The notes under the pieces were generated by a model. It was not told where the DNA came from and made no database searches. It saw only the letters and a list, made by a program, of their open reading frames with translations. Both the position numbers and the translations under genes were made by a program. A DNA stretch of 64,000 bases, taken from contig CM120645.1 in the NCBI GenBank assembly GCA_051362555.1, forward strand, positions 19,468,001-19,532,000. The letters are read 5' to 3'. Source of the DNA: Lingula anatina. Lineage: Eukaryota; Animalia; Brachiopoda. This document shows positions 1 to 52,046 of the stretch, piece after piece (position 1 is the stretch's first letter; every line of letters starts with the position of its first letter).

Positions 1-2090
1 AAAAAAAGGGGGGGGGGGCAGGGAGGGAAGATTGACACTTAATTGAAAGATGAAAATGTTTTTTATTTCTCAGTAAGTAAAATGTGTTTCCAGTGATTTT
101 GTTACACAGGAAACAATGATAGGTAAGACAAAATTTATTTTTCATTTAAAGGGAAAAAATGTGCACGTTTTTAATCATTTTACAAAACGCAAGAATGTTT
201 TTCTTTTATGAAATGGGTCACATACCAATTTCTTCATCTAATTAAATGTTCTGCTGTCAAGTTAATGTAGAACAACTGAACTGGAAATGGACCCAAAATC
301 ACTCTTCAACCTATTTCATTTGACTATCTGTATGGTGCCCTTGTTACTCCCGTCAGTGTCCATTCTGTCTCTACTGAGCAAGGTTTTAGGGCTGCCTCCC
401 ACTGCCCCCTTCCCCTTAGGGTTATAGGCAGTTTACCTTTATCATGAAAGAAGTTTGTCTTAACATGATCATTTTCAAGGCAAATGACAGGAAAGTGACA
501 GTTTCTTTTTTAGAAGCAATAGGTTGATAGCTAGGTAACCTTTTGTTCTACTGTTTTTTTTTTCTTCCACAGGGAAAAGATGTCAGTTGGGGACTTTGAA
601 AAGTACACAGTCTGTTTGTACAGCTGAAAGGTGTAACCTTCAGGGTTTCCTTTTTTGGGGGCCAAAATTATGTTTTTTTTTTCAGTGACAATTTGTTAAA
701 GACCAAAAGCTGGTCAAATTTCCCTAGTAAGCATAGATAAACTTAAGCAATAACCAAAAATTATATATGCTAGTGGAACTTGGCATTTGCAAGAAATTGA
801 CTTGAAGAACTATTGTGGTAAAAGGGATAATAACTCTTTGTATATGTATATTTCACAATAAAAAATTGTAAACATTTCATAGAAATGACATAAATTCTGT
901 TTTACCACAAAAAAAAAAATCGCAGTTATAGCTATTATTCTGATATCTGAGCTTGTCATCAGACCATGTGACCTCCATAGATGGCTATACTCAGTAATAA
1001 TCTCTTAAGAGATTATAACATAAAACCAAACTTTTTAGAAAAAAAAACAGGGACTAACTTGGAATGTATAAAAGGATTCATTAACCACTGGGAAGTATGG
1101 GAAAATTGTTGTTTACTCCGAGAAAATTCATTTTTTGGCCAAAACAAACAGTCATTATCCCTTTAAATTCAAAATAGTCAGAAGGTTTACTGGCTGTTGG
1201 GTGTTTAGCTAGAATTATTCCTGGCCCATTCGTCAAATTGCTCCATTGACTGGACCATTGACTATATATAGGGCTTGAAGCTAGCAAGTTTTGCCATAGC
1301 TGCTTGCAGTTTTCATGTGCATATGCCATAGAGCATATAGGCAAAACTGCCAACAAAAAAAATTTCAGTGTGGGTCTAACCTGTGTAATTTGGGATACTT
1401 GGCAACTAAACATAACAACAGTATTTCTTTACAAATCATTTTGGGTGGCTTTTTTTTATTTTTTTTTTTACATGCCATGTATGATGTATTCCATATTTCA
1501 TTTGTCTTGTTGCTGCTGAGAATATTTCTGTATTTGGGGTAGTTCTGTTAGTGCTGCCACCTATACCTCAGGTGTAGATGTGCAAGTGCTGCCCCCTAAG
1601 ACTTTGGGGTGTTTATGTGCTAGTGCTGCGAAATATGCCAGGGGTAGATGCAAAGTTCTGCCACAGATATTACATTGTTTTAAAAACATCCCCTCCCCTC
1701 TCCTTGTTATTTGTTATTTGTCTGTGTAAACATATAAATCAATTGAAAAGGTGTTTTCAGCTTTTGTGTGCTATATGTCTGGGGGATTTGATGTGTAAAT
1801 GCACTTCTGAAAATCAATGGTAATTCAGTGGTACTTGGTTGAGTTAAACACCCTCTCGAGGATATGACCCCTGGACTGGAGATGGGGGTGAAGAAAAAAA
1901 AATGAAAGTATTACAAAAGTTAGAGCAGGGTACATCGATTAATACCACTGTAATAGTAATTCTGTTGTTCGGTATTTTGATAATTAAAATATGTTTAGGT
2001 GGAAAGTGCTGCATCATCATGTATGTCCATGGTATATTTGCCTACTCAAAGTGAGATGAAGATAAACTAATGTCTGCAATTCTCTTTCAG

Positions 2091-2885
2091 AAATCAGTGA
2101 AGGCTGCAGAAGAAATTGCTGCAATTTCCCCTAAAGATGATTCATTAACAGTGAGTTTTAACAGAAAAACATTTGAGACAGTAATTTTAGGGGAACTAAA
2201 TGATAAGATGACGCCATTTTTATTTTTAGATCCAATTCATGAACTGTAAGATAGTGAATTCTAGCCAAATGTTTTACATGTTCTCATTTAGCCCAGGGAA
2301 ATGTTTTGTAATATTACGCAGTTCTTTTACCACATTTTCCTTTGTCATGCTATGTATTTTAGCTTTATCCTAGAGTGATCTCAGAGTTCATCCTGTGTCA
2401 GGCTTAAAAGCTTATCATCTTCAAAATGTCAGGGAATTCTGGCAGTAATTTGACATCTAATTGCTTGAACCGTTGAGAAAAGCTGCCCAGTACTTATTGA
2501 ATAAAATGTCTAAATTATGAGAGAGAAGAAAAAATAACTTAATTACATTTTAGTTTTAACGTTGGTGGTAATTGATGTAAATACTATGTAGTCTCTTCGG
2601 TATTTTACTCACCTTATTAACATCTAAATTATGACAAAATTATAGTTACCTTTGGCCTAAGTTTATTTGTAAAAAAAAAAATGTAGAATAAAACTTTGAA
2701 TGAAAGACAAATTTTTTAGTAATATTATTCAAACAATTTCAGATAGATAACTATAAGTTCAACAATGCAAAAACTCTGGACAAAAGTACACTGACCTACT
2801 CTCCTAAGTTTGGCAAGGGGATCAACGAGACCGTCTCCAGCGTACACATCCCTGTGGAGATATACTATGGAGGTACGTGGTCTGT

Positions 2886-2974
<89 letters not shown>

Positions 2975-5900
2975 TGGTGTGTATTCATATGCATGTGCAC
3001 TCAAGCATGCACATATAATGTTACAATTGATATGTTAATTGCTCATATGTACAGTGTAAGTACACATGCATGTGTATGCAAGCACATACGTATGCAGGTA
3101 CATCGAATTGAAAGAAATATACTTGCACACACTCTTCTTCTAAATTCAATGTTTAATTAATTAAAGTATACTAAAACAGGATCAGATAAAAATCACAATT
3201 AACCATTGCATGGTAGCAGGTATTATGCAGAAACTGAGTTGTGAGAAAAACAATAATATCAACATATAATTTTATTTTGTGATTTGAACAGATAAAGATA
3301 TCCTGAATGGCCTGAAGTGGACAGAGGGACTGGACGACGTATGGAAGCAAAATGCAGAGGATGATCCAAATCTTCTGTGGCAATACTTTGGGGGACAGAA
3401 AGGGTTTTTACGTTCTTACCCAGGTAAATTGATGGAAAATCTCCTCGTTGGTTAAAATTAGATTAGTAAAAGTAGTTACTACTACTTCCACAGTAACTGC
3501 TGCAGCTACCACCAGGTCAACCATTCTTAGACCCCATTCCCACAGATTTTAGATCGATCTATCCCTGTGAGGAGTCTCACTAGATTACTGTCAACGTAGC
3601 TGGCTTAAGCGTCTGTCCCGCCTACTTAAAGCTGTAAAGGGGTAATTAACTACCGTGAGCGCTCGGCTGAGAGCAATTTAGCGTGAACCCCCAGGGAGTT
3701 AGGTCGATCTAGATGGATCGATCTAAATCTATGGAAATGCACTCTTAGATGGCCATCGCTCTATTTCTGTAACACTCTACCTGTCATAGTTGAAGCTATC
3801 TACTTGTATGAGTTCCAGTGTCAAATTACAGATGAAAGTTAATGACTTATTTCGCTCTCTGTATTGATCCTGGGAAAAAAAGCTCTTTGTTAAGAACTTC
3901 ATGACACATTCACAAGGGCACCCAGAGGCAGATCAAATGTGAGCTGGGTACAGAACTCGTGCATTGACTGGGATCCATCAATTGTTACATGCTTAAAGGG
4001 CAGATTAGATCATGTGGAATGTAACTGAATCACATAGATTGTGCCTGCTCAAAATAGAAACTCAGATTGGAAGGGCTATGAGTTATTATGTACGGGATCT
4101 TCACACATGTAAAGCAGTGCCTTTACTGACTGAGAATAGTATCCACATAATGTAACTCGGTGTCTGAATTTCATAATTTCTTTTTGCGAAGAAAAAAAGA
4201 GTGCAATGAACTGGAAGATGGGAAAAGGAAACCTAGTTTGATACAATGTATAAATAATGCTTAGCTTTAAAACAAGAAAACATATCAGAGTAAACAGAGT
4301 AAATGATAAATATAATGAACAGTAACTAGAAATAGTTAATGTTTGAATAATATTGAAATTGGATTTAAACAGTACTTCAATCTTTACAGTTTTTTATAGT
4401 TTTATAATTTTTTCTTTCTTGATTTTATAAATATTAATTTTTATTTTAAATTAATTATAAAATATTGAAAATATTAAATTAATTATAAAATATAATTTAT
4501 TTTATTCATATTACTTAATTTTGGTTATTAATTTGTATATCTGATATTTTCATTAACATTTTAGCCAATGCATGGACTGAAGCCAAGCCTGATCTGTATG
4601 ATGTCAGACGTCGTCCTTGGTACACACAGGGGTCAAGTTCACCCAAAAATATGATGATATTAGTAGACACGTAAGTCTGCCCTATTTATTTATTTTATTT
4701 TTCTTTGCAAATTTCAAACACTTTAAGTATTCCTTATTCCAAATTTTTTGTTATACTTAGTAGTTTTTTTCATCAAAAATTTTTAAATTATGTGTCAATG
4801 GGTACCTTTGCAGTGTAATTAAATGATTATTATTTTTGCCTATTTTGATTGCAGTGTAATTGACAAATTAGTATTAAATAGCAGAATTCTTTTCGCTTGT
4901 GGTTATCAGTTTTGCTTGCTTACAGTTGTCCATTTTACCACTTCTTTTTCTTTTTTTTTTTTGACCCATGAAGAAATGGAATTCATGCAGTATGTTATAA
5001 ATATTTTAAGTTTTTGATCTAAAGGAATGACTTCAACCAAAAAGGCTCAAAAGAACTTGAGATTTAAAGTCTTTTAAAGCTTTTCAGTTCAGTATAGATA
5101 ATTAATTAATAAATCAACAAATAAATGGATAATTTCAGGAGTGGAAGTACTACAGGGGAAGCTCTGCAGCTGATGAAGGAAACAGTAAAACAGTTGCTGG
5201 AAACTCTCGGGGAGAACGACTTTGTGGCAGTAGCAAATGTAAGGTTTTCATTTGATGGTTGAAATAGTCTTCAATATTGGTGTAACATTAAAATGATTAT
5301 GTTATATGTAAGAATGCACACTGTATATAGGGAATGTTTTTGGCTGTTGTGAGTTTAAGATGGAGGTGTGTATACTTATTATCTGTTTAATGTTCACTTA
5401 TTTAAAAAATTCCAGAATTGATGATATGTTTTGGTGACAAAAGATAAAACATAGTGTTCATGATAGTTATTTTCCAAACAGTTGCCAATTGAAAATAATA
5501 ATAGCCAGTTCTTATTTATAAGTCTAGTTATAAGTCCTGACATCTCACAAATGTTCAATACAATGTTTTCCCTTTCAAATTGAAAATCAACCATAAGCAT
5601 ACCCTGCATCTTTTCAGTACTCCAAAACTGAAGAAATCCAAGACACTGTGCGGTACGTGTCAGAATGTTTCCAGGGCTTTGTCCAGGCCACACACAGGAA
5701 CAAGCAAGTCCTGAAAGAGGCAGTGATGGATCTTCAGGCCTCTGGGATGGCCAAATGGGAGGACGCTCTGGAATTTGCTTTCAAAGCTTTCAAAGAGGTT
5801 GAAAAATTTCTACTATATATGGAGTTTGTATTATAGTGCTGAAAAGCATATTGATTAAATAGAAATTGGCTTTAAAGTTTCATTTTCTGTATTTTTCTGT

Positions 5901-6772
5901 TATTTGCAATTTTGTATTTCATTGACAAAACATCCTTTAGTTTATCCTGAGATAGTTCCACAGTTTAATACTGGCTTCTTTAACTCAGTATAACTAGGTT
6001 TCAACCCAAATGTATTGTTTGCACCATCTAAAATGTTAAAAATCTCTTGTAATGTTTGAACAAGATGTTACAAAGCTTTTTTTTTTTGTTCCCCCTAGCA
6101 AAAAGATGGAAGAAGGGTAAAAAAATTTTTATCGGACTGTGACTGATCTTAAGTTTTAGTGTACATATATCTTGAGGATTCATAAAACTCCAACTTATTT
6201 AATGCTAAATAAATCGAAGCATTTTTGTTTTTAGTTTGAACAAGATGAGAAAAACAGCAGCATGAATAATGTTGGAGCAGACTGTAATCGAATTATCATG
6301 GTGTTGACAGATGGCGCCACTGCCAAAGACGAGGCAGCCACTGTGTTGAATAGAGAAAATCCTGACAAGCGGGTATGTAGCACAAACTCAATATGGAGGT
6401 GACAAAACACTGGTATCAGGTTAAAACCATTTGTTTAGGCCTGTGAAATATGATGTTGTGAAATTTCCTTTTGATAATTTTTTGTCTAAGAAAAACATAC
6501 ATTTTCATAAGAAAATTAATTATTTGATTTTAAATAGTTTGAGCAGTGACACTTAACAAAACATTAAAAACATAAAAACTTTCATGTTGTAAAATATGTT
6601 ATGTTGAAAAGATTTTTTAAAAAATTGATAAATTATATTTCAATATTTTTTCATACCAGATTCGCATATTTACTTATGCCATTGGTAAGACAGCTGCTGC
6701 CATAGAGGCTGTCAGGTGGCTGGCCTGTAAGAACAGAGGTTAGTGACTCAGTATTAGTATGACAAGTTTATC

Positions 6773-6834
<62 letters not shown>

Positions 6835-9800
6835 GGTGACAAGACGTTCGTTTTTGTGAAAGAAGCATGAAACTAGCGAAATTGGCATAATCTTAGCTTG
6901 GAATGGAGCCAGTATCTGCCCCTCCCCCTTAAAAAGATGATTAAAAAAAGACTTGTTAAAAAGTCATAGTTTTCTCCACACTCTTGATGTTGTTTAAGGA
7001 AAATAGTTGGCATTTTCGGAAAAATAATTGAACTATAAAAAGGTCTAATGCTACTTGTATCATGGCAGTGAGTGATGTTGACCTAAACCTTTCACAGACC
7101 TTCTCCATGATTTCAGGATATTTCTCGAAGATACCAGCAATGGGCGCCATCAGAACCACAGTACAGGTGAGGTTTTGTAGACCAATTTTTTTTATACCTG
7201 ATGTTGTTATCATAAGTATAATTCAGGCCATTCTTACACCAAATTTTGTGTTATATTTTGTGTTGCACATGATAAATGTAATTGGCGTCATTCTTGGACT
7301 TTGAATCCAAAACATAAAAGGTATTATTGATGTAATTTATAAAATATTACATTTTTAAATTAGAAATAAAGGCATTTAATATATAGTTTGGCCAGTTTGT
7401 TTGAAAATTAATGGTGTTATTGTTTTAATATATTAAGTGGATGCATTTTGATATATTAATATTTAACTAAAGCACATTTTTACAGCAGATTTAGAGTGTG
7501 AATTCCCATAAGGTATGGTTTAATAAGTACACCAAAGACTTCAGTAAAGTAAATGATGTATTAATTTGATATATTTTTGCTATGGTACATATGGACTGTG
7601 AAATGTGTTTGATAGCCCTTTTTTGATATGATTTCTTTTTCAGATGTTGGACTCTGATTTTACATTCTAGGGCATCTGGTTTACATAACGAAAACCAGCT
7701 TATTACAATACACACTTTAAATGCTTTAAAATTTTAGCCATTTATGAATTTAATTACTTATTTTCATAAAACTGTTTACATATTTGTATTATATAATGCT
7801 TAAGAGGTATTTTACTTCCTAATAACTCATTGGTTGTCACCTAGGAACATGTGGCAGTTGTTGCTAGACCTCTAGTCTTACAGTCTAGAGCATACATACA
7901 AGAATCGGATGTTTATGAAGATGCATTGGTATGGTGGCAGTTAGTAAACAGCCAAGTCATGTGACCCATGTGGGATCCCATTCTTTGTGTGTCTGCATCG
8001 TTGTTGTTGTTGTTGTCCTGTCTTGTTTGTAATGTTTTGTGAAGATCCATGGTTTCATTATTTATTCACTGAAAGCAAGGAAAGAAATGAAGAAAGGAAA
8101 AGTGAAAGGAAAATTGAATATCCCAAAAGTATTATTTGGAAAGATAAATTATGTACTGCAGTGCCAAAAATTGATGTTTTGAAAAAAAGAATAATTGTGA
8201 TAAATAGTTGAATAATTATCATTATAGAAATACGAAGCTATCAAAATTCTCACCAGTGAATACCTGTGGATCTTGAAGCCTCACTTCTGTAGTATCTTTA
8301 TGGGGTGGGATTTTTTTTTTTTTTTTTTTTGCTAGATCCGTATTTACATTGGCAAACATGGCTGACCCTGTGACCTCTGTGTGACCTCTTTATTTTTGGT
8401 ACTGGTGTCAAAATTGTACAGTGTATCCCCCTCTCTCTTCATCAACCAATTTGTTATTTCAGCTTAGTATCCATTGTGTTGAAAGTTAACCCAGTGATGT
8501 AAATTTCCCCATTCTGATTTCTATCCTGTATCCATTATATTTCTGCTTTCAGGAGTAACGGGTACCGTAGATTCCATCTACCTTTGGCTGCATTTACATG
8601 AAACTTGGATTACACTTTTGTTTATCATATTTGACTTGTTTTATTTTTAAGGTTCATGGTTTGTGTGAGTAGTGAAATTTAGTGCACATAAGTAACTGTT
8701 CAGCAACATTTCTAGTCTGTACTTGGAACTATCATGGAGTCATCCTAGAAGGATCCTAATCTTTTACTTGCAAGGGATAACTTTAAGGAAATAACCTTGT
8801 CAAAATATGGAACTGTTCTGGTTCATTTTGGAGGCACTCTCACCCCCAATCAATCCAGGAAGTTTGTGTAAATGCACCCACACCCCCCCCCCCTTACCCA
8901 ACCCTCTTATGTTACTATTTCAGAATTACCCAGCTGTGGTAGGGCGCCCCATGGCGCTGGAGAATATAGAGCACACCCATACCAGCAGTCCCTACCTGGA
9001 CGCAATGGTACACATTTAAATAATATGTACTACTTTATTACCTTTTTTTTTTCATTCAGTGAAAGGAGCAATTTTGCATGGGGAGGGTTTTACATTTTTT
9101 GGTGATAGTTGTTTAGGATATGTCAATTTACAGTTCATGGCTAAGGTTTACTTGGGTGGAATTTCATTTAGTTGGGTGGAATTTCAATTACATTTCTTTA
9201 AAAAATGCTAGGAAAATACAAAATTTGGTGCCTTGGCAGTGGGGTTCTTGGATGATAAGTCAGTTGAATGTTTTGCAGACACTCTTCATAAATCAGAACT
9301 TCATAAATAAGACCTTCAGAACTTCTGTTTTAACAGTTGAGGTGGTGGAACGATACTGGCTCATTACAGAAATAGAATCTCTTTTATGAACTCTTCTGAC
9401 AGCATTTGGGGACTCAAAGAATGCTTTTCCCTTCAAATGAGCTTGTCTTGGTAACTGGCTTGGTGAAAAAAGACTTTACTTGATTAATATAACATTCATT
9501 ACATGTATAAATGCTTGATGTATTTCTCAGATGAATTTTTACTTTCTAAGTTGGAAAGTACACAAAAAAATTAATGACATTTGCATAGTGTCCTGTGATC
9601 TGTTGATATGAATGGAGATAGAAAAGATGCCAATAGCTTTGGAAGGCAAAGGGGTGAGCGTTTTTTATCCAAATGAAAAAAAAAATGTGAAAATTATGAC
9701 CTGGGTGCATCATGGTGGAAATCAGGAAAATAAAACATGGGAAAAAATGAGAGATTTGAAATAAGTTAGTAATTAATATATCTGCAGGAATACCCTTCAG

Positions 9801-12800
9801 GTTATAAGAAGAAAAAAGCTTTTCATTAACAGATTATGACCAAGTGATTTCCTGTGTGTTTGTTGAAGTTGAAGGTTGTATGATTTTTCTAAGTGGTATG
9901 TGAGAATTTCTGAGATGTCCCGTACTAGAACAAAATAACTTTTGTTTTCTTTTGACCAGTAGGTTGAAACTGATATAGTTAATAAAGTTAGATGTTATGC
10001 TGTGTTTTCAGAGGTTAACCTAATGTAAAATTTATTTCAGTTTTTAAAATTTTGCATTATTTTCTTCCTTAATATACCCCCAAAACAGATGCAAAGGTGG
10101 ACCTGAAAGCAACATGGTATTTTTAGATGCATAGTTTAATATTTAAAGATTCACCTTTTTTTTCACAAAAAGGGGGAAAGGGAATTGCTGGCAAGTCATC
10201 CCATGGAGACGAGGATATAACTGATGCAGATTTGTAATTTCTGATTTATCTTTTTATTTATCTGCACATCAGAAATATCCAGAATTGCTGGCAGACACAT
10301 TTGCCTATGGTAACCTGAGCCATGTCCTAGAATCCAAGATGTACATAGATCAAGGGGTAAAGTGAATGACGCCATGGTAACGATGCCATGGTTACGACCC
10401 TAACTTAACCTCCACTTTAGGCATGGAGACTGCCCAGAGTTTGTGTATGATACAGTTTGGTTCCCATTCAGTTTTTATTTTTTTATTTTTTAATTTGTTT
10501 GCTGTAGATTTGAGAAACAGTGTACAGACACAAAGCACAGGGTCATGTTTCACAAATTTAACTTATTCAGATGTCAAAGTTTGACTTAATTTTAAGACTA
10601 AAATGTACAGTAGTATTCCTTTTTAGCCAGGATAATTTTCACCAGTTTATATTTGGTGGGTCCTAGGACTTTTAGGCTCATTGTGAAACGTGATTGGGTA
10701 AATAGCTCTATATTTGAAACTGGGGCTTACATTCTGATTTTGAGTCGGCTACTGGGTATTCATAGTACAATTCTTAGAGTTAAAGGAAAGACAAACTTTT
10801 GACATATGGAGTCATTTTGTGAATTGCAGCCTTTTAACTTTTGGATGGACTAATTAACAGTAGAATACATAAAAAAAACTTAAGTTAGGATTTTATTTGT
10901 TTGTTTTTTATATTTGACAATTTCAGAATTAAACTAGAAAAGACACATTTTACATGCTTGGCCTTTGAAATTAATGAACAAACGCATACAAAATGTCTGT
11001 GCACTGTTTTAAAATATCAGTTCAGTTGATTGAAAAAGTTTTCTTAACAGGAGCTTTTTTGAAATCAACTTCAGCCTTTCATGTTGCAATTTTACTGAAC
11101 AAATTGTTATTATTTTTAGTAAGAAAATTACTTATAGATAGCTTGCAGCTGTCTCAGTTGAAGACTGTTCTCAGAATAATCACCAGGTGGGGTTACAGTC
11201 AAGTCCCTGTTTATTATGTAGGTTTTACAGTTACCACCTGGTGGTAATTAGACATCTTAAAATCTCTCTGAGTATGGACGTGGACTGAGACTTTCACAAG
11301 CTATTTATTAGTATTTTGTTTAGAGAACTTTTCATTGTGCAATGAGTTCATTTGATTTAATGGTTGGTATATAAACAAGTATTCTTAGAGTGTACTTTCT
11401 GAGGATATTGTCATGGCATTTGATTTTTGGCATGTTTGATCTTTCCCTTTATTTCTGTAAGTTTGAAGAAAACTGCCACCATTCATTTCTAGATGAGAAC
11501 TTCAGAGTGCGGAATTTAAAACAGTTAAATCTACTAACAAATTACCTTTTTACATTAGTCATATAATGTGACAAAAGGAAATGACATCAATTTATTTATG
11601 AAAAGAACTTTTTTTCTGGTCACGCAAAAATATAACTGTTCATGGAAATTTATTATCAAATGGCACACACTATTTTTTTTTTTTTTTTTTTTTTTTTAGT
11701 GAAAAAGGTCCAAGAGCTTTGCCTACTATTTATGATATAGCTGAGATGAATTTTGCATGTAAGAAATGCAGCCAAATAAAAGTCAGTATGTGTTCTGAAT
11801 GGTTTCAATGAGTTTGTTGTGTGAATTTAATTGGTGTGATTTAATAAATTAACATTCAAGTTAGAAAGGGAGGGGAGGGGTTTGAAACCCTGGCACTGGT
11901 CACTTACTTCCTTCATTTTTGTGGAGCTGTTGTGATTGATCACTGGTCAGTCCTCAATACAGGAATGATTTGAATTTTTGAAACGAGTGATTGCTTTATT
12001 TTTTTACTTTTTATGTTGCAGTTTTAGTGATGAATGGCAACAATTGCAGTATTTGGGTGCAGTTTTGTTTAAAACTAATGACTTATGAGTTAACAGGATT
12101 TTATTTCTTATTTTTCAGTGAATGATTAGAAGTTGTTTGCTGATTTTTAACTCAGCTACTCAAATAGCAATTGCATTGTTTGCATTTTTACTCATAATCA
12201 AGTTGATTCAATTAACCACTGAATTTAATGTTATTTTCAGTTGTTGCTCAGTACTTTGCAGTGTTTGCTTTTTTGCCACAAAAATAGAAGATATAGTTAA
12301 TCACTAATGATTGAGTATTCTTTTATTTACTTAACTATTTTCAAGTTTTCTGTGATCAGCATAATTTTATAATTGTGCATAGTGCTCCATATTGAATGTG
12401 GCATTCTGGGCTTACACTAGCACCTGATGGTTATACCAAAAGTTAAAAAGTAATTTTACTGTAGACAATAAAAAAGTGATTTTTTTATTTATCATTATTG
12501 ATTCCAATGGGTTTAGAGCAAACATTGATCTTGTGGAATCTCAGCTCATTTGTGAAATGAATGTTTGCCAGATTAAGTAGTGGTATGCGTAAGCCCAGAA
12601 GAGCATGAGGAGGAAAATCCCACAGTTGGTGGCGACACTATACAATTACATTTGGGAGGAAGGGGGTGTTGGGGGTACGCACTCATTGGTCACTTAGTGG
12701 CATAGTGTTCCACCTCCAAATTTAAAGGTGCGATTTGGTCAGGTTTGAAGCATGTGTTTGAAGTTGCTTTTTTCTTTACTTGCATTTTTCTCAGGAGTTT

Positions 12801-15800
12801 TTCACTGTTTTGAATCGCCCACTGGCACTGGCATACAAGCAGTTTTCGGGATGGACCAGTGTTTATGAAGATGCTTTGGTAACAGGAATTATTTGTCACA
12901 ACTTTTGCTGTGACTTTGACATGGCTTCTGGCTGGCGACAAGCCTGTAATTTCCACCCTTAGAAAAATATATATGATAAATGGATATGCATGTAGTATAA
13001 ATTTAGATTAAATTACATACTTGCAAATTTTTCTTTGATTGCCACAAAGAAATTGTTTATCTGACTTGATGTCAGTTTTGGTATGGACATGTATATCCAT
13101 AATTTAACAATCCTTGATCAGAAAGACAGCAGTAAGCTGTACTTAGATATTTGTCCTGAATAATTACATGAACTGCTATGTAGATTTTAAGTGCTGAAGC
13201 CGCGTCTAGTTTTTTTTCCCTACCCAACAGCAAAAATAGTTTGCTCCTATGCAGCTTTAAGCCTTGTCAGATGGCTGGTTTACACACAGTTGTTAAGCCA
13301 TGTCAGATGGCTGGTTTACACACAGTTGTTAAGCCATGTCAGATGGCTGGTTTAAACACAGTTGTTAAGCCATGTCAGATGGCTGGTTTACACACAGTTG
13401 TTAAGCCATGTCGGATGGCTGGTTTACACAGTTGTTGAGCCATGTCAGATGGCTGGTTTACACACAGTTGTTAAGCCATGTCGGATGGCTGGTTTACACA
13501 CAGTTGTTAAGCCATGTCGGATGGCTGGTTTACACACAGTTGTTAAGCCATGTCAGATGGCTGGTTTACACACAGTTGTTAAGCCATGTCAGATGGCTGG
13601 TTTACACACAGTTGTTAAGCCATGTCAGATGGCTGGTTTACACACAGTTGTTAAGCCATGTCAGATGGCTGGTTTAAACACAGTTGTTAAGCCATGTCAG
13701 ATGGCTGGTTTACACACAGTTGTTCAGTTGTGGTAATTATTAAATAAGTAGCCAATTTCTCTTTCAACATTCACTTGTAGAAGCCTTCAATACACATAGT
13801 GAGAGCAATAAAGCTGAAACAACAATACCTTTTTGCCTTGGATCTTAAGAGGTCAAAAATGTTTTAAAATTCTGACTCAAAAAGTTTGTTGTGCTAAACA
13901 TTTAACCTATGGTTCTTTACTTAATATGATCAAATTTAATTGATGCTATTTCCTAAAACAATAATTTTTATAAATGAAGACTCAAAAATTGATTGTAATA
14001 TTTAAAGGAGAAGTCTGTTTCAATTGGGAGTGGGTCATTATAATTATTTATTGTGGCCAATTGGTGATCTTTTATCTGGAAATGATAACATTGGAAAAGT
14101 TTTGTGCTCAAAATTTTGGAACTATTTTTATGAAACCTCTGAAATACTGCACCTTATTGGTTTGATCAAGGTTTGAATAATGGTGTGTAAACCTGCATGT
14201 TTTTCCTGCATGCAGCCCTTCCCCAGTGAAATTAGTGCTGTTAACACCCAGCATGTACAATTTATATAATAGTAGATCATTTCTTAAGAGACTGAATGTG
14301 TTGTGTTGATAAAGCTTGACTTTCTGATGCTTCATCAAAGTGCTTTGATCGCATAGCACCTGCCTCATGGGTAGAAAACATGTTTGGTCTTTTTAGAAAT
14401 GACTTTCTTTTTATACATTTTACAGACTATCAAAAACTTATGTTGCTGCACATTTTTGTTAGGTGTGTTTTTTATGAGAAGCATGTACTTACCTGCACAG
14501 CATGAAAAATATGTTTGTCTTTGTTTTGCATGATGTCTCATATGAGCCCATTTCTCAGATGTATCATGTATTGTTTCACACCAAAATTGGGACATTATTT
14601 TATCTAGTAGATCTATAGGAATGACTATTCTGAGCTATATGCTTCAAAGGTCATTGAGCAGACATAACAAAATATTTAGAACGTATTCAGACTGTGACCG
14701 CTCAGCTTTTTTCAAGACAAAAAGTGGTTGAAGCAGACTTACATTTATGCAATTTCATTTTAGCAAAATGGTGTTTAAGTCTGTAGATTGTTCTTTATCA
14801 ATATAGTCAGTTAAATGCTGGGACCTGTGCACATATGCACACACACATGCACATGCATGCACGCACGCACATACACACACAAACACACACACACAGTTCA
14901 TACTACTGGCACTTATCTCGATTAAGCTTGTATTTTCTGGAAACAACGTGGCTATGCTAATGACAGGAATCAAGGTGTGGTCTATAAGGTACGAGAAAAT
15001 TTCCTCTTCTAGGAAGATATCTGCATTTTCATAAGAAAAACTGAATTCAGAAATTGATTGAATTTTACTAAGAAATGGTCTGTGGAGAATGAAGAAAATG
15101 CTTTCTTTTGTTGCATGTTTGATCCCATCTATAATTCTGAAACTTGGGATGATATTTTATTATGGAATCAACATCATATTTATGTATGTTTATAAATGCA
15201 TGTATGTGTGTGTTTGTGTGTGTGTGTGACCTTATAAATCAATTAAAAATACTTAAGATACAAGTCATTCTGTTCATTTACTCCCCCCACCCCTCAAATG
15301 TCTGAATCTCAAAGGTCACTGGAAACTTGCCTCTCTAAGCCAGAGGTGTGCTGGTGAGAGAGATGAGTTTCCAGCAACCTTAGAAACTTGGGGTGCATCT
15401 GGACACTCAACTATCTTGGATGATGTTGATGTTGTTTTGCATGCAGAAGTAATGAACAGTTTTTGGAGGAATATCAGTTTTTATGTTTACGTAGTTACAG
15501 TTATCAGTCTTGCACCTTTAAAAGTAATATGCTACAACTTTGGTATAATGCATGGAAGTATTGTGAAGCATTTTTATATGATGTTTTAGTGCTTTAGATT
15601 ACAAATGGGCTTTTTTATTTATAATCTTCAGTTCATGAACAATTAAGCACAATTTTTTCATAATTTTAATGGTGCCTAGAACTTTTTTCATTGAAGTTGA
15701 ATTATTAAGGGGAGGATTCGGGCTGAAAGATGTATAACAAATTAAATGCATTTTATGTTTGATGTTGTTCAGCTTTAAAGTTTACCCTTTTTTGTGTCAA

Positions 15801-16286
15801 CTTCCATCTCATCTTTACTAACCTAGCCGCCTAATAACCCAACATAATATACCTTTTCTCCTTATTCACCCCATTGTTTTCCCAAGTTGAAATAATTTTA
15901 TTTTAGATTAGTACTTATGTAATGTATGTCAAATGTATGTAATAAGATTTACATAGATTTGGGCAATTAACTCTGATTCTAAAGTAATAGACATTTGAAA
16001 ATTAATTTTAAATTTTGTACATTTGTTTCATTATTATGTACAGTATTAACTTTTTGAATATTTACACTGAATAAAAGTTACATGAAGCTGACCCCTGGTC
16101 CAGTGATCTGACCACTCCACTGACCAGTGTGTCTGCTGTATTTCAGGGTCTAGGAATGATGATAACACTGACATTACCAGTATACAACAGAAGCACCGAC
16201 TCAGTAAGAGACATAGATTTTATTAATTGATAGGAAAACTTGCTCGATTTTGTATGAATGTTCATAAATAGAATTATTTATTTATT

Positions 16287-16355
<69 letters not shown>

Positions 16356-18641
16356 TTAAGGGGGAAATTTTTTGCTATTTGTAAAACTGAAATTAGGATT
16401 TGGTTTTATACAGAATGTTCTCATAATAAATCATGCACCACATAGGGGGGATTGTGGCACAAGTTGATTGCCTTGTGAAACCTCCCACACACCTTTCATG
16501 GTGCCATCTAGTGGCATAGAATACAATACAATACAATACATTAAATTTCATATTTGGAGAGTTTTAAAATAAAGCCTTATCCGAATAGCTAATGTCACAG
16601 CAATGATTTAACAAGTAGTATTTTTTATCCCTTGGATAAAAAAGTATATAATTTCAACTGTATGCAGGTAAAATTATTTTGTATTTAGGTGAAGTTTTGG
16701 CAGACTGTCAAAGTGAGTACTAAAAATTATATGTAAATATTTACTAGGAAGACAATGACTTAAAAATGCAAACTTGAGAGTGTTCTTACCATGTTCCCTG
16801 TCCTAATTTTGTATTTATTATTTAAATTTTAATTTTTTCAGAATAACCAGACCATCCTTGGTGTAATGGGTGTGGACGTGACCACTGCGGAAATGGAGAA
16901 CAGCACTCCATGGCAGAAGGTAGTGACTTGAAGATGTGGTTAGATAGAGTGTTTTTCCACCAGTGCCCCCATCCATTCACCAACCTCCACTTCAATAAGA
17001 AAAAATTCTGTCTAGTCCCCTAGCCATGAAAGCCCCCTTTACACTGGACGGCGTCCTTTCTGCGTCCAGCAGTACGGCCCCATTTGAGAGTTAAAAAATT
17101 ATAATACGTTACGTGCCGTAAACGTATTAAGACCACAGTGATGCCAAATTTCATGGTCGCAGAAAGAACGCCGTCCAGTGTAAAGGGGGTATAAGAAAAG
17201 AAATGAGTTCTGAGTTGTACAAAATGACCTCATAATGCCTAGAATTTTATAATATGTTCTAAGCAATTTTGTTCAAAGGAGGTTTATCCACCAGTGTCTC
17301 TTATGTACAGATTTGAATTAGCTTTTCCCATCAGGAACAAAAAATTCTGAAGGCTTAAAGCTGATTCATCAGCTCAGGTGATGGCAGTTAGTATGTCAAT
17401 ATTATGATAATATTATCATTTTGTGCGAAATGCTCTCAGCTGTTCTTCTCTTGATTGGGTGAAAATAAATGATTACATTACTCATTGACAAGAAATCCAC
17501 AAAATCAACAAATTGAAAAAAAAACATTATGATGTAAGTGTTTATAAGTAGCATAAGTTTTTAACATTATATTTTGTGAACCTTTGCAGCTGGGTCCAAA
17601 TGGCTATGCTTTTGCTATGAATTGGAATGGCTATACAGTCTTTCATCCAAACCTCAAGGCACAGGTATTAACTGCTTTTTAGTTTGACTATGGTACAAGG
17701 TTTATGGTATAAAGCATAATTGCACAAATCAAGATGTTTTAGAAGATCAATATGATAAGATATTATAATACAAAAAGGTGAAATATTGTATACAAATTGA
17801 TTCTTAATTAAATGGATAAAAGAATATTATAATATTGTCATGTTACAGTACTGAATTTAATATTTTTTCCAAAAATGATATAAAACATTAATAGAAAAAC
17901 TGATTGACTGAATTAATTTTATTTTCACAGCTTGGTTACTTGAAAGATCCTCCCAATGTGGACTTCCTGGAAGTTGAACATGAGAACCCTGCAAAGATTG
18001 AGGTAAAGGGTCACATTTATTATTCAAAGGGTCACAAACTTGTTGCATCATGATATTTATTACAGTAGTCATAATGTAGATTTGTAATTAAGGATTTATA
18101 ATTTAAGATAGCATTAGTATTTTCCTGGTAAATTTCTAATGCATTTATAGAAAATCCAGGTACAAGGCATGAATATGACTTTTCAAAATTAAGGTCTTTT
18201 TTTGATAGATAATGATGAAACAACAATGAAAACTTCTTTCAAAAATGATAAATCAGTTATTTTTAGTGGTTTTTGTGGTTGTATCTGAATCAAAATGATA
18301 CAACAACCAGCTAAGCTCAAAAATAATGTCTTTCAAGTGATAAACCTTTTAAAAATAAATATATCACACTTAACTGGGTGTTTGCAATTTGCAAGTTCAT
18401 GTTGTATCGATTATTGATGTTTAAAAGAGAGATGCATTTAGAAATGGAAAACAAAACGCACTAGCAGAAAAGATTATGTCTTACACTTTGATATTTTTGC
18501 TTTATTTAATCTTTTTAATTTTAATTATTTCAGCTGAGAAAGAAGATGATCAACAACCTGACAGGGAATGCAAACATAGAAACATTTGTCATTTCTAAAG
18601 ATTTGGTGAGTCTTCCAAAATGTTTACTACTCCACAAACAG

Positions 18642-18689
<48 letters not shown>

Positions 18690-21600
18690 GTCCTAACTGA
18701 ATTTTAATTATGTATGTGCAAAAAAATCAATGAGAGCTTCTACATGCAAAAAATGAAAAAAATGAGTGAGAGCTTTTCTTTATTTCCAGAGGTACGCCAG
18801 TGAGAAAAACAGGCTATATTTCTACACAGGGATCCCCAACAGTACCTTCAGCCTGGGGCTGGTCATGCCAGATTACTCCATAGTTTATCCTGAGGTCACA
18901 GGATATCAAGCTAAGCAATGTGAGTACTGATAAATTATTCCATAGTTTATCCTGAGGTCACAGGATAATCAAGCTAAGCAATGTGAGTACTGATAAATTA
19001 TTCCACAGTTTATCCTGAGGTCACAGGATATCAAGCTAAGCAATGTGAGTACTGATATATTATTCCATAGTTTATCCTGAGGTCACAGGATATCAAGCTA
19101 AACAATGTGAGTACTGATATATTATTCCACAGTTTATCCTGAGGTCACAGGATATCAAGCTAAGCAATGTGAGTACTGATATATTATTCCATAGTTTATC
19201 CTGAGGTCACAGGATATCAAGCTAAACAATGTGAGTACTGATATATTATTCCACAGTTTATCCTGAGGTCACAGGATATCACGCTAAGGAATGTGAGTAC
19301 TGATATATATCAAGCTAAGAATTTTGAGTACTGATAAATTATTCCACAGTTTTTCCTGAGGTCATAGGATATGTAGCCAAGCATTTTGAGTACTGATAAA
19401 TGATTCCTGTATCTGGTTGCATAAAAAAAGAACTTGTTTGTAACTTTCAGGCCAAAATAATAAGAGAAGTTTGACCCAAGACTTTATCAAATAAAACATT
19501 TTATTTGTCCAAGCCAAAGTTGAATCATTGGCTGTTTAATTATAGTTACTCTATTTAAGTGGATGCCTTCAGATTTATCCTAAATTTAAAGTAGACAAGA
19601 TTTTTTTGTCTTAAAGTTAATACTGGTGCTTTTAAGAAGTTATTGTTAAAACTGGTTACAGAACTATCAGGATATTATGATAAATACTGTGAACAATAAA
19701 AACAGTGGTTCACGTGTCAACATCTACCACCAGGGGCGCCACCTGGTGATGAGGTACGAGGCATGCACCGTGTCACCAACTGTCATAAGAATTTTGGTTC
19801 CAAAAGATAGCCTTTCACACTTTCTCAAAGGACTTCTATATATTCTGTTTCAGTATTGGAGCCAATTGTTGCTGATGCAGACCAAATGCAGCAGGGAGTT
19901 CATGCCCCTTTATGGTACAAAAAAAACTTTCAGTCTTTTCTGTAAAATGCATTTGACAATTGAATGTCAAGCAAATAGTTTTATGTATTAACTTCATTGA
20001 ACTAATCCATTGTAGTCTGCTGATAGAAAAGAGTTACTTTGAGTTATACTTATATCACTGAAGTACAGTGAGTCTTTGTTTTATAGATTAGTACTTACTC
20101 TATTTTTAATACAGATAATGAAATATGCAGATTATGCATTTGTATTATTATTAGTACCACCAGCGTGTACGCTGGCGGTACTCATGGTTTTAGTCCCGAC
20201 CCGTCTCGTACAGCTCCGCCGGCTCCTGCGGCTCCGCAGGATGACGTGGGATACAAGTCACCGTTACCGCTTCTCCTCCTAGACCGCAAGGACCTGTGTC
20301 CCCATCTCTTGGATTTAGGTCACATATAATCTCAACTTGAACACCCAGGTTTTTTTGTCTCAGTTGGTGCATTGACCTGGGCGTGACGCTTGTTGAAACG
20401 CACCCTTGTCAAAATGTTTGAAAATTCAATGCTAAATATCTCCCAGACCGATGGAATTATGGGAAAAATTTCTACAGATGGCTGACCGAAAGTCATATGT
20501 GAGGTTTTCAAATATGCCCTTGGATTTGACCTTTGACCTTTATTTCAAGGTCAAATGGGCCAAAATTTTCTAAAAATAGGAATTTTTTGCGAGAAAATTT
20601 TTATTTCAGCCCATTTTCAGAAACTAAACAGATCTTACCTATAATATTATGGGCAGGTGTTACCCTTAGGGTCATCTTTCATTTTCGTGAGTTTGGGGTC
20701 AATCGGTGCATTTTCATGGTAGCAGCGGCCATTAGATGCCGAAACTGAAAACTCTCTCTAATTCTGGTACCGTTAATGCTAGAGACCTCTTGTTTTATGC
20801 ATTTTGTAGAACTTGTCAAGGGCAACACTGGGGGTAGTGTCTATTTTTTTGTTTTCAATACGGCTTAGGCATTGCACTATATCAAAAAGTTCAACATCCT
20901 AAATTCAGTGGTGAAAATAAAATGTGAAATCCTCAAAAATTAGCAGAGATATGCCCATAGTTACTTTTGAACTTGAATAGGAAGTCATATACTGGTAATC
21001 TAACTGTAAAATTGAAATTGACCTTTGACCTACTTTTCATGATGAACTGCACTTTGCAAGTTTTCTGATCTTTATATCTCCAAAACTGGCAAAGATACGC
21101 CCATAGTTACTATTGAACTTGAATAGGAAGTCATATAATGGCAATCTAACTGTGATCCTGAAATTGACATTTGACCTAATTTTCACCATGAACTGAACTT
21201 TGCAAATTTTCCAGCCCTTATATCTCTAAAACTGGCAGAGATACATCCATAGTTACTGTTGAACTTGAGTGGGAAGTCATATACTGGCAATCTAACTGTG
21301 ACCTTGAAATTGACCTGTGACCTACTTTTCACCATGAACTGAACTTTGAAAAATTTCTCTCCCTTATATCTCTAAAACTGGCAGAGATAAGCCCATAGCT
21401 ACTATTAAACCTAAATAGGAAGTCATATACCGGCAATCTAACTGTGACCTTGAAATTGACCTTTGACCTACTTTTTATGATGAACTGTACTTTGCATGTT
21501 TTCTGGCCTTAACATTTCCAAAATTGGCAAGGAAATGCCCATAGTTACTATTGAACTTGAATAGAAAGTCATGTACTGTGACCTTGAAATTGACTTACTT

Positions 21601-24600
21601 TTTCATCATGAACTGAACTTTGCATATTTTCTTGTCCCTCACATCTTCAAAACAAGCAGAGATATGCCCAGTGTTGCCCCTAGGTTTTCTCTTTTGTCAG
21701 CATATATGCAACACTGATAACTCATTTCAAGGAAAACCAATGGGCCTATTGTCCAGAAAATCACAGGAGTGATCAATGTTAGGAAAATACAGGCTAATTG
21801 GAAAATCCGCTTGATTGGACCATTTTTATGTTATATTTTTTCTATTTTTTTTCATAATACTACTTTGAGAATTCTTGTTTATTGCATAGAGCTTGTCAAG
21901 GACAAGACTGGTTGTGGTGTCCCTTTTTTTTGGGGGGGGGGGGGTTCCATTCGAATGCGCTCACTCCAGCTGGTGGTACACTATCCGGAGGCGGTATCAC
22001 CTCTCTGATCCTCTAGTTATTATTGGATATTTTCAGGATTTGTAACTCTAAGGACATTGTTGTTGACAATTATAACAATACCAATGACACGGAGACATTT
22101 CCTCCAAACCCAGTCAGGGACATGGTGAATGGGAGCAGTTCTTGTGAGTGGTTTTTCAGCAAAGTTGGTTAAATTTATTTTTTTACTGGCAAAGATTATA
22201 ATTAGTAGGTCAACAATTTCACCATCATCAATCATCTTCGCCTCCAATTTTAGAGATAACAATGCATAACCTTCCTGGAATTCACATAAAATTTTGTTTT
22301 AACTGGTCATGACTTGACTGCCATCTAGTGGCTGTTTCTTGGGAAGTTTGCCACATATGATATTCCTAATGACCACTGAAAGCATTAAATCTCCAACATT
22401 CATTTGATGTAGTAGGGAATGCCCTACATATTGAAAATATTAAATCTGCATCACAAAAAAATGTGAACTTTATCCCTTAATCATGTGTAGTATGGTGAAA
22501 CTCTTGAAACATTTTGTGCAGATATTAAATGAAGTAAAGCTTTATTTTTCAAAACGTGTTTTAATATTCTTCCTAGGCAATGACGATCTTGTCCAGCACT
22601 TCCTGTGGGACTACGTGACAACCCAGAATGTCACTGAACATTGGAAGGCCTTGTCTCAGGCATACAAGTAAGCTTTGTGGTGATTTTAACCCAATTGAAA
22701 CTAAATTGATGACTCATATTTTCCCAAAATGTTGCCTTCTTTAATTACCTCAAAATTTAATTGGCAAATTGTTGCTGTTGAGTTGGATTCAACATTTTTT
22801 CGAGAGTCAAGAAAAATTGTGAATGATTATAAAAAAAATTGACAAGTGATGATTTTGAGAAATTGCTGTGACAGAGGAATTTGACATCCTAAATTTTATT
22901 GCACTTTCACTCTGGCAACATTGAATATAACTTAAACAAATTAGGAAAAATATGTAAAATAAATTCATAATGTTAATGCCAAAAATGATATTATTTTTAT
23001 TATTAATGCTGCTGTTATATATTTTAGTTAATTGCAAATATTAAGCTGTCTTATTTTCAGATTCTGATTAAAATTTTGAAGAGGTAGTAACTTGTTTTCT
23101 AGGTCTGCCACAGAGGTTGTCTTTGTTTCCACAAACAGTGGACTGACCAGGCTCTATCCTCATAAGTAAGTGGGTCATAATTGACCACAAGATCGCAATT
23201 TGTCTCATGTGGAAGTATACTGTGAATATGATTTCAGTAGAAATTCTGCTGTTTAGCGATGAATATAATATTAATTCCTCTGAATCAAAAGGCTTCTGTT
23301 TAATGCAGATTCATGTGAATGTTATCAGAATTTAAGTAAAATCTACTGTTGTGTACATGTAAAGTATATATGTTACTGTTGTATATCTTGAACACTTCAG
23401 TATGACAGAACAGCTTCTGAATATGGCCAACCCTCGTGAGAACCAGGAATACAAAAGGGCAATTGATGAGGACCATGTGTTTTTCTCAGCGCCTTACAAA
23501 GCTGGTTAGTAAGGTCGCATGCAGATCTGTTTTAATAAAAAACATTATGAATCAGTATTACAGCCCTGGGTATGAGTTTATAATAGAATCCTTTCTAGAG
23601 TATTTGCTCATCATCAGACTGATTGATTTTTCCCTCTTAGAAGCCAGAAAAAGAACAAAGTCATTTATTTCTAAGTTCTGTCACTTAAGTGTAGGGAATA
23701 GAAATGGCATTTAGTTGTACAATAAAGGGTGAAAGAGAATGCCACAAAAGTATGCACAAATAATTGAATCAACTTTGACCACTTTTCAGTGAAGGACAAT
23801 AACCCCAACACCACTGGTCCAGTGGTCAGTGTCATGAAGTCCATAAGCATGACGGAAAAGGGTGGCAATACCTATAAACCAGCAGGTTTGTAGACTGCAT
23901 AGAGAACAATATGCATGCATGGAGACATACACACGTAAAAGTACACAGTCAGACACACAAAATTATTCATTCCTGTGCATATAAATGCTCGGATATGTTT
24001 TGGTACAGATGCACAAACAGACATGCCTATATGCATAAACTCACATGGAACAGCACATGCACACATATACGTACACAAACACACATGCTAACACGCACAC
24101 AGGATTTTCAGCTTAATTTGACAGTGCTGACAGTGATCCATTTTATGAAGCATTTCTTATATTATACCTATGCTGTTGTAGTGTCTTTCTAAATAATACT
24201 ATTCTGAGATTCCTTTTATGGAGGATAGCTCCTAAATTTATGGAAAATCAATAGCATTGTAAAAATATGCAAATTAACATAAATTGTATTTACATGGCTT
24301 AATTTTATAAATATGTGACGAAATGAATTGCCAGTCATTTTGGTTTCTGCTTTTTTGTACAATTTTGAGATCATTTTATCTTTGGTAATCAGAGAAAATT
24401 AACTATGAAACTAACTAATCTGCAAAAAAAAAAAGGAATAATAGAGTAACTTCATACATCCTTAACTAGTGAACGTAAAATCAAATTTCCAGTGGTTGGA
24501 GCCAAGATGCACCAGACATACTTGACTGAATTGATGAACAATACCAGCCAAGGGCAGTGCTCTGATCTCTCTTTGACTCTCTTCTGTTATCTCATTGATG

Positions 24601-40463: not shown

Positions 40464-41771
40464 CTACAGTACAGTCTGGTGAGTGGTCACTGAGGAAACC
40501 CTCACAATAACTGGCCCATTCTCCAGGTCCGAGGAAGCTGTGGACAGCCGCGAAGACAACGAAATTCTGGAGGATCTTGAACCGCCCTGGACAGTGGCCA
40601 CTGAAGAAAGCCTTGAGGTTCTGCGACTGGATCCTTGGTCGGAGGACTCCCGCAAGCTGCCCATAGAAATATCTTTGCCACATCTGAACAGTCGCTTAAG
40701 ACCTAGACGAAACTTGGACCCCATGAGACCGTAAACGAAAAAATTGACGCACGCGTTGAAGCCAGTTAAGAAGTACACTACAGGCCAGACCCACTGGGCC
40801 ATTATGGTGAACTCATACGGCAGGCGGTTTAGGAACACGATGAGAAACTGCAGCAAGACGTGAGGGAACACTGCCAAGAAGAACAGGGTCAAAAGCGTGA
40901 TGACAATACTCGTTACTTCACGCTGGTTACCTTTCACGGCGCTAGAGACGCGGTTTCGCATTTTATCGGCTCTACGCACTGCCACGACGATCTTCACGTT
41001 CAGCGTGATCATAGCCGAGAGTGGTATCGCATAGCTCACAATGGCGTGCAGTACGAACCGGTAAATGATTTTATAGATGCCCCATTCTTTGACCTTAACA
41101 TTAAAGCAGAAATCTTGCGATCCCGGAGAGCATGGCAGATATCCGACGTACTCCGTGTCGAAGAATTTAGGTGTATTGTAAAGGAAGCAAAACACCAGCA
41201 TCGCTACGACGCGGACCCGCCATTTAGCGATGGTTCGCTGTTCGGCCGTCTCGGTGGGCTTGCAGATCGCCATATAGCGATCCAAAGCGACGAAGGTTAG
41301 CATGTAGGTAGATGATAACCGTGCCGTGGCCACAAACGGCCATATGTGTACTATATGGTTCTGAAACACGACAAAGAACCACTCAAGCCAGCCCGAATAT
41401 GGATGGAACGACACGGAACAATATGCGACCATACCAAATATGTTGAACATTATGTCCGTGACCGCTACCATGGAGAGCAGAAACGGAGCCGCTGAGTCGG
41501 TGTTGTCTTTGGATAATACTGCAATTGCAAGCGGGTTACATATCAGCCCTATCACGCAACAGGTGCCCGATGCAAATCCTCCCATTATTACGGTGTACAG
41601 ATTGTATGCGGTTGGGTAGAAAGTCGAATTATTGGGAAGCGTGTCTGTGCAATTACCAGCCGGCCAACCCATTGTTGATACATTGTCAAACTCCATTTCT
41701 GGCAGCATTGATGAAGAGTTCAACGACATCCCAAGAAGTAAGGAGAAATTACAGCCCGACGTCATATCCAT
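40464..41771 (-). CDS. Intronless class A (rhodopsin-like) peptide GPCR, FMRFamide/sex-peptide receptor-like, 435 aa
   Basis: Seven hydrophobic segments; several N-terminal NxS/T sequons; TM1 GLICN, TM2 VAVTD, TM3 ALDRYMAIC, TM4 YNTPKFF, TM5 YAIP, TM7 NACVNFFVY; Ser-rich tail. The subfamily is inferred. Confidence 0.93.
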   Translation of the reverse strand: MDMTSGCNFSLLLGMSLNSSSMLPEMEFDNVSTMGWPAGNCTDTLPNNSTFYPTAYNLYTVIMGGFASGTCCVIGLICNPLAIAVLSKDNTDSAAPFLLSMVAVTDIMFNIFGMVAYCSVSFHPYSGWLEWFFVVFQNHIVHIWPFVATARLSSTYMLTFVALDRYMAICKPTETAEQRTIAKWRVRVVAMLVFCFLYNTPKFFDTEYVGYLPCSPGSQDFCFNVKVKEWGIYKIIYRFVLHAIVSYAIPLSAMITLNVKIVVAVRRADKMRNRVSSAVKGNQREVTSIVITLLTLFFLAVFPHVLLQFLIVFLNRLPYEFTIMAQWVWPVVYFLTGFNACVNFFVYGLMGSKFRLGLKRLFRCGKDISMGSLRESSDQGSSRRTSRLSSVATVQGGSRSSRISLSSRLSTASSDLENGPVIVRVSSVTTHQTVL

Positions 41772-50238: not shown

Positions 50239-50269
<31 letters not shown>

Positions 50270-50645
50270 GCACTTTTACCGATAACACGATAAGTGGAAA
50301 ACCATTTTACCTTTTTACTTGAAACTTGCAGAACTGATGAATATTCATAATACGCAGGTCAAGTTCGAAAATCAGCATGATCGGGTCACTTTTAGGGAAT
50401 TTATGCTGTTTTTTCACTTTTTTCAGCATATATGCAGCACCGATAACACGATAAGTGGAAAACCATTTTACCTTTTGACTTGAAACTTACAGAACTGATG
50501 AATATTCATAATACGCAGGTCAAGTTCGAAAATCAGCATGATCGGGTTACTTTTAGGGAATTTATGCTGTTTTTATGAACAGACACAGATGTGTCTGTAC
50601 ATATAGCCATCATCTGCGTCTGTCGTCGCCGTCGCCGTCGTCGCT

Positions 50646-50686
<41 letters not shown>

Positions 50687-52003: not shown

Positions 52004-52046
<43 letters not shown>

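Follow-up and report, generated by a model that had tools for sequence, protein, structure and literature searches.

A stretch of 64,000 nucleotides (nt) from the brachiopod Lingula anatina (GenBank assembly GCA_051362555.1, contig CM120645.1, positions 19,468,001 to 19,532,000 of the forward strand; hereafter the window, in whose coordinates all positions are given) carries part of a gene assigned to the alpha2delta subunit family of calcium channels. Within this gene, four alternative exons of 84 nt each, A to D, lie in tandem between two constitutive exons and code for alternative versions of the same segment, or slot, between the VWA and Cache domains. The cluster is real, three of its exons (B, C and D) are expressed, and the site is already in print for molluscs. 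The features under study are listed below, with residue numbers referring to human alpha2delta-1.

2088..28442, + strand: alpha2delta host gene, the part in the window from the first matched exon to the stop codon (tblastn exon map of the proteins P0001 and P0002; Pfam VWA_N, VWA, dCache_1, VGCC_alpha2)
7117..7166, + strand: upstream constitutive exon, coding for the end of the VWA domain and the start of a linker helix; its common donor is joined by RNA reads to B, C and D
7845..7928, + strand: alternative exon A, 28 amino acids (aa), with the Y450, D452, A453 and L454 equivalents kept; used, with an identical peptide, in gene models P0001 and P0003
8924..9007, + strand: alternative exon B, with Y and D kept and Met at 454; 10 reads from the upstream exon to B and 12 loose ends from B to the downstream exon
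10273..10356, + strand: alternative exon C, the most divergent, with Y and D kept, Gln at 453 and Gly at 454; 5 reads from the upstream exon to C; type shared with the annelid Owenia
12795..12878, + strand: alternative exon D, with W446, Y, D, A and L kept; 22 loose ends from the upstream donor; used in P0002 and folded in the structural model
16147..16203, + strand: downstream constitutive exon, a strand with the T461 equivalent; its common acceptor is the one whose first bases are read by the loose ends from B

Judged by sequence and predicted fold, the host gene is an alpha2delta gene. P0002, which uses exon D and was mapped exon by exon over 2734-28439, matched human alpha2delta-1 (8if3) with a phmmer E value of 4.5e-175, and the predicted fold matched that of alpha2delta-1 with a Foldseek template modelling (TM) score of about 0.7. 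The Pfam layout comprised VWA_N, VWA, dCache_1 and VGCC_alpha2, with the dCache_1 hit at 25.8 bits, below the cut-off of 45. The two database proteins nearest to a query with one of its upstream exons, P0001 and P0002, at 98% identity over that exon, are both named Lingula anatina alpha2delta. Exon A is used in P0001, a truncated model that then reads through to a stop.

An earlier first-pass annotation, made from the letters of the window, had proposed that the four exons are homologous and mutually exclusive. Its coordinates, the 84-nt length, the open phase-0 frame, the AG/GT ends and the four translations were all exact. The spacers along the cluster, from the upstream to the downstream exon, measure 678, 995, 1265, 2438 and 3268 nt. 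Identity among the four exons is low, at 29-40 of 84 nt and 4-12 of 28 aa, and exon D is the copy closest to the single vertebrate form. The pairs A-D, A-B, B-D and B-C outscored all 3000 shuffles and the similarity between A and C was equalled by 4 of 3000, but that between C and D was indistinguishable from chance (559 of 3000 shuffles). The copies are neighbouring exons of similar length and the same frame, with valid splice sites, and they code for part of a folded domain, features shared with other clusters of this kind.

A fifth copy was sought among 135 open phase-0 candidates of 69-114 nt, bounded by AG and GT and lying between the flanking exons, each of which was scored against 81 slot peptides from homologues. 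The four exons scored 70, 67, 64 and 60, the 67 being that of exon A, which is identical to exon D at 40 of 84 nt. Three further candidates, scoring 58-51, were versions of these exons with displaced ends, and the best unrelated candidate scored only 19. There are therefore four copies between the flanking exons, and no fifth was found among the candidates.

Several peculiarities of the host gene were recorded along the way. In P0003, an alpha2delta N-terminus is joined at the donor of exon A to a ClC chloride-channel domain; the model is probably chimeric and likely goes back to an error in an older assembly. Seven copies of a 62-nt unit (96% matches) stand in tandem at 18872-19308 and cover the final 15 codons of one coding exon together with its GTGAGT donor, so that the exon end and the 5' splice site are themselves repeated, with an in-frame stop after the donor in each unit. 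An intronic minisatellite of 146 nt x 4.4 lies at 20932-21578. At 26443-26800, also inside an alpha2delta intron, near-identical translations are found on opposite strands, which points to an inverted repeat with about 100 nt per arm, possibly a small transposon.

The exon and the ligand pocket

Alignment to 8if3 placed the exon at residues 425-454 of human alpha2delta-1. Y450, D452 and L454 belong to the set of 12 residues that make up the mirogabalin pocket as defined by cryo-EM and alanine scanning (PMC12634952; PMC11308618; these and the other papers are cited from the accessible parts of their texts), and therefore 3 of the 12 published pocket residues lie on the alternative exon, a point that the first-pass annotation had overlooked. 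The stretch Tyr450-Leu454 is named as a core pocket segment in a preprint, as far as its accessible text goes, and the third Tyr of the dCache_1AA motif is assigned to the ligand's amino group (Gumerov et al., 2022; PMC8915833). The motif residues Y236, R241, W243, Y450 and D491 were all matched in Lingula. Both halves of the motif are present, the N-terminal one as Y..R.W and the C-terminal one as Y...D, with the difference that in Lingula the third Tyr sits on an alternative exon. Outside the cluster, the equivalents of Y236/R241/W243, T461 and D491 are intact, whereas at pocket positions 207, 215 and 217, also on constitutive exons, the 8if3 alignment gave Y, L and S in Lingula versus V, A and Y.

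On the exon itself, residues 453/454 are A/L in A, A/M in B, Q/G in C and A/L in D, and W446 is kept only in D among the four. A first AlphaFold model, built on 61 rows in which exon types were mixed, had low confidence in this region, with a predicted local distance difference test (pLDDT) score below 50 for residues 300-360. A second model of the D form, built on 79 rows mostly of the canonical type, reached a mean pLDDT of 83 and a predicted TM score (pTM) of 0.83. In this model the exon corresponds to residues 310-337, predicted to form helices at 310-315 and 317-322 and two short strands, with a pLDDT of 85-91 over the block, in agreement with the earlier proposal that the segment belongs to the folded dCache_1 core. 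A search of PDB sequences with the 28-aa exon as query gave no match.

Exon use in Lingula and at the same slot in other animals

RNA reads of four of the nine listed runs (X1, X4, X7 and X8) were placed on positions 7050-10420, and junctions were listed from 3 reads up, with all but 2 of the loose-end rows taken into account; exon D and the downstream exon lie outside this interval, and their junctions rest on the consensus of loose read ends. A total of 37 listed exits from the upstream donor were found, each leading into a single exon: 10 reads joined B (X7 5, X8 5), 5 joined C (X4 3, X7 2) and 22 were loose ends (X1 18, X8 4) whose consensus was the start of exon D with an agreement of 1; therefore, no direct skip was seen. 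Likewise, 12 loose ends leaving the B donor (X7 8, X8 4) had the start of the exon at 16147 as their consensus, with agreements of 1 and 0.98. No A-B, A-C or B-C joint was found among the listed junctions of the four runs. These data bear out the proposal that the exons are used mostly one at a time, and predominantly single inclusion is, in our view, very probable. The junctions foreseen from 7166 to B, C and D and from B to 16147 were recovered, with no A-B or B-C joint among those listed; exon A is discussed below. Exon use differed by sample, with 18 D and no other exon in X1 against 4 D and 5 B in X8 (Fisher p = 0.0016).

As a separate observation, the X7 and X8 reads depart from the window sequence at 6 positions of exon B, and 4 of these alter 3 codons, while in the upstream exon each of the 3 variable positions is the third of its codon; exon B may be fast-varying between populations.

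The ways in which one exon might be enforced at a time were also considered. Nonsense-mediated decay (NMD) was rejected, as 84 is divisible by 3 and both co-inclusion and skipping stay in frame. Steric hindrance (a donor less than 50 nt from a branch point) was rejected on the spacers of 995-2438 nt between the alternative exons, the AG-free zones being just 29-59 nt. Incompatibility between U2 and U12 splice sites was rejected because none of the donors (GTATGG, GTACAC, GTAAAG, GTAACA) fits the U12 donor consensus. The first-pass annotation had already excluded NMD and steric routes from frame and spacer length, and splice-site type adds no U12 route. Of 629 clusters in human, 484 are likewise left to other mechanisms (Hatje et al., 2017; PMC5740500); the Lingula cluster is therefore a common case, and the earlier statement that an active mechanism is needed does not make it special. 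Homologous mutually exclusive clusters as described there share with Lingula the tandem arrangement, the equal frame and length, and the correspondence to one structural element.

Apart from microsatellites, AT-rich matches and a minisatellite with a 36-nt unit, a search for repeats found nothing, and no long inverted repeat was seen to link the exons; a search of Rfam over 6600-17000 gave no match. The minisatellite (36 nt x 13) occupies 13257-13724, in the intron between exon D and the downstream exon.

Several slot peptides were also found among the isoforms of other lophotrochozoans: 2 types in the nemertean Lineus, 3 each in Haliotis, Pomacea, Mytilus, Octopus and Biomphalaria, and 4 each in Crassostrea and Ostrea. 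Gene models of the annelids Ridgeia, Lamellibrachia and Capitella contain at least two slot-like segments in tandem; the third "copies" of Capitella and Lamellibrachia and the second of Ridgeia are fixed-length cuts that may not be true exons. In the sea spider Nymphon, both models carry two copies, and the score of the pair lay above all 3000 shuffles. B-like peptides were found in one millipede protein and in one further protein, as either a paralogue or an alternative exon. Outgroups showed a single slot type (14 of 15 readable proteins in amphioxus, 9 of 9 in sea star, 4 of 6 readable in spiders), and 65 of 65 vertebrate alpha2delta-1 proteins have one copy of the slot. The slot of Owenia scored 60 against Lingula exon C (0 of 3000 shuffles), above the 38 of the best-matching Lingula copy, which suggests that the C type is likely to be older than the split between brachiopods and annelids, and is in line with the earlier view of the exons as old duplicates.

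In an alignment of 56 slot peptides, from which P0091, P0226, P0230 and P0298 are omitted as unread by the pattern, Y and D were both kept in 34. Both residues are present in 1 of 3 variants in each of Haliotis, Pomacea and Biomphalaria, in 2 of 3 in Mytilus and Octopus, and in 2 of 4 in Crassostrea. In the Lineus proteins P0004 and P0123-P0129, 0, 6, 9 or 15 extra residues follow the alternative exon, which suggests two additional micro-exons bordering the pocket.

The first-pass annotation knew of no described cluster at this position, a statement that the literature contradicts: three mutually exclusive alpha2delta exons have been reported at this site in Aplysia, with counterparts in oyster and octopus (Dunn et al., 2018; PMC5818475), and the oyster entries XP_011447859.2 and XP_011447858.2 given there are P0171 and P0172 of our set. 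This mollusc cluster (site 7) coincides with that of Lingula in gene family, in the VWA-Cache slot and in its flanks (after ..VQ and before GLGMM), as far as its published description was available. The two differ in that Lingula has four exons of equal length, all with Y-x-D, whereas some mollusc variants are without it. The accessible text of Dunn et al. (PMC5818475) lists the site but assigns it neither a function nor a mechanism, and does not connect it with the pocket. Alternative splicing in the cache domains is also found at regions A, B and C of mammalian alpha2delta-1, and one splice variant has lower affinity for gabapentin; nevertheless, these regions are described in the available text as cassette or alternative-acceptor loop insertions and not as duplicated exons that replace a motif (PMC9901441). 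The literature searched, which did not include most subscription papers, the datasets of Hatje et al. or the Drosophila catalogues of such exons, yielded no publication that describes a cluster at this site in a brachiopod, annelid or arthropod or that connects it with the pocket. The present comparison adds a brachiopod member, extension to a nemertean, extension to annelids and a sea spider by gene models, a C type common to Lingula and Owenia, and the mapping of the exon onto the pocket.

Exon choice and the pocket: favoured reading and rivals

We favour the reading that the swap of a single exon tunes the amino-acid pocket and its supporting helix, and consider it, taken as a whole, moderately probable; that exon choice affects ligand handling is, in our judgement, an evenly balanced proposition. 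The swap would likely give subunits that differ in the amino-acid-binding pocket and the neighbouring helix. The choice would fall to cell-type splicing factors; neither frame nor spacing, the type of spliceosome or a single common docking site would determine it. Exclusivity would be preferential, with two-exon and no-exon products being rare and folding poorly, so that any leak would be removed at the folding stage. Exon D would provide an ancestral-like pocket and exon C, with Gln453 and Gly454, an altered wall, while the mollusc variants lacking Y-x-D would show little or no amino-acid binding, with altered trafficking of the calcium channel as a consequence. More tentatively still, we propose a protostome exon cluster older than the divergence of brachiopods, annelids and molluscs, and perhaps of arthropods, and retained ever since, which would rebuild one wall of the pocket and yield isoforms of different selectivity and, in molluscs, ligand-blind isoforms as well.

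A number of observations weigh against this reading. Y450 and D452 are kept in all four Lingula exons, and the differences among A to D fall mostly in the helix and loop, off the pocket positions. No junction into or out of exon A was among those listed in the four runs. Read depth was low: 0 of 12 exits from B permits up to 22% co-inclusion and 0 of 37 upstream exits up to 8% skipping, and the C-D, C-downstream and D-downstream junctions were not viewed directly. X1 and X8 come from different studies and differ in sequence, and the difference in usage could be one of population or protocol. Finally, a tally over 9 lophotrochozoan clusters, with 93 members listed (for Mytilus 15 out of 36, for Crassostrea 15 out of 69), gave 56 single, 15 tandem, 7 skip and 15 unreadable forms, so that 22 of the 78 readable ones are tandem or skip. 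The tandem forms comprise 12 RefSeq isoform models, all from molluscs, and 3 GenBank models. The single exits listed in Lingula stand beside the 12 mollusc models that join two exons; exclusivity, first proposed as strict, looks leaky, or may be so.

The main rival, in our opinion rather unlikely, holds that the swap acts on surface contacts, namely the helix after the VWA domain and the next loop, and thereby on partner binding or folding instead of the pocket. The retention of Y and D in 4 of 4 exons fits this explanation, as does the concentration of most differences among A to D in exon residues 1-23, which are modelled as helix and loop. Nevertheless, exon C alters both A453 and L454, W446 is found only in D, and at least one variant without Y-x-D occurs in each of the six multi-variant mollusc genera tallied.

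It is also conceivable, and in our estimate quite unlikely, that B, C and D are live while A is silent or decaying, the working cluster consisting of three exons as in Aplysia. The missing A junctions point in this direction, together with a read depth over A of about 1 in X7 that is continuous with the upstream intron, and with the condition of the models that use it, one truncated (P0001) and the other fused to a chloride channel (P0003). Against this, exon A has an open frame, intact AG/GT ends, a branch-like CTAAT at -26 and the Y, D, A and L residues; its peptide is identical in the database copy and retains its score of 67 against homologues despite the 40/84 nt identity to D.

In Dscam1, exclusivity is achieved by a docking sequence that pairs with selectors. 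A mechanism of this type, in which a single docking sequence in an intron would pair with selectors located next to the individual exons, gains from the exclusion of frame, spacing and splice-site type, and an upstream segment at 7488 was predicted to pair with the upstream regions of A to D, where the worst energy was -12.9 (equalled by 1 of 10 shuffles), and with that of D alone at -22.8 (equalled by 1 of 40), borderline values uncorrected for several tests. For a shared docking site facing the regions upstream of B, C and D or downstream of A, B and C, however, the best segment was no better than 10 shuffles, and the exons are not linked by a long inverted repeat. Unlike the Dscam1 clusters, Lingula has no docking site shown, and the mollusc models suggest leakiness; we regard such a mechanism as decidedly improbable here.

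Lastly, the view that the exons are loosely independent cassettes, with two-exon and no-exon mRNAs routine and tolerated, draws on the 15 tandem and 7 skip forms and on the frame being kept either way, but it is very improbable given that no joint between alternatives and no skip was among the listed Lingula junctions, that a cluster composed wholly of transcript-assembly proteins (10 members, with two types) was single-copy in 7 of 7 readable cases, as are the Aplysia forms, that the exon lies inside a folded core and that gene models carry no measure of abundance.

Returning to the tuning of the pocket by a single-exon swap, its interest lies in the fact that the amino-acid pocket of alpha2delta is the target of gabapentin and pregabalin, while its natural role is unsettled. 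Leucine binds alpha2delta with a function that is not known, and Trp and Phe alone are without effect, according to the accessible text of one source (PMC9901441). A spliced pocket offers natural variants of which some retain and others lack the Tyr and Asp of the motif, allowing comparison against a single gene background; Aplysia neurons, where the subunit has been cloned already, are one such setting. If the reading is true, ligand-blind and otherwise differing isoforms would constitute a natural experiment on the role of the pocket in the animal. A further gain is a case of mutually exclusive exons that is deeply shared and stays in frame, and that neither frame, spacing nor splice-site type would enforce. 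The mollusc alternatives being already published limits the surprise, and the added value resides in the wide protostome reach and in the overlap with the gabapentinoid pocket, through which the natural role of this pocket becomes open to testing.

Other features of the window

Two further genes were noted downstream of the alpha2delta gene. On the - strand, a single long open reading frame at 40467-41816 codes for a rhodopsin-family G protein-coupled receptor (7tm_1 E 1.7e-20, Srw E 6e-14). On the + strand, scattered exons of one gene extend over 47453-59926, with a CUB-like stretch near 47600, recognized by eye, a low-density lipoprotein (LDL)-receptor class A repeat at 54820-55005 and a proline-rich tail at 59357-59926.

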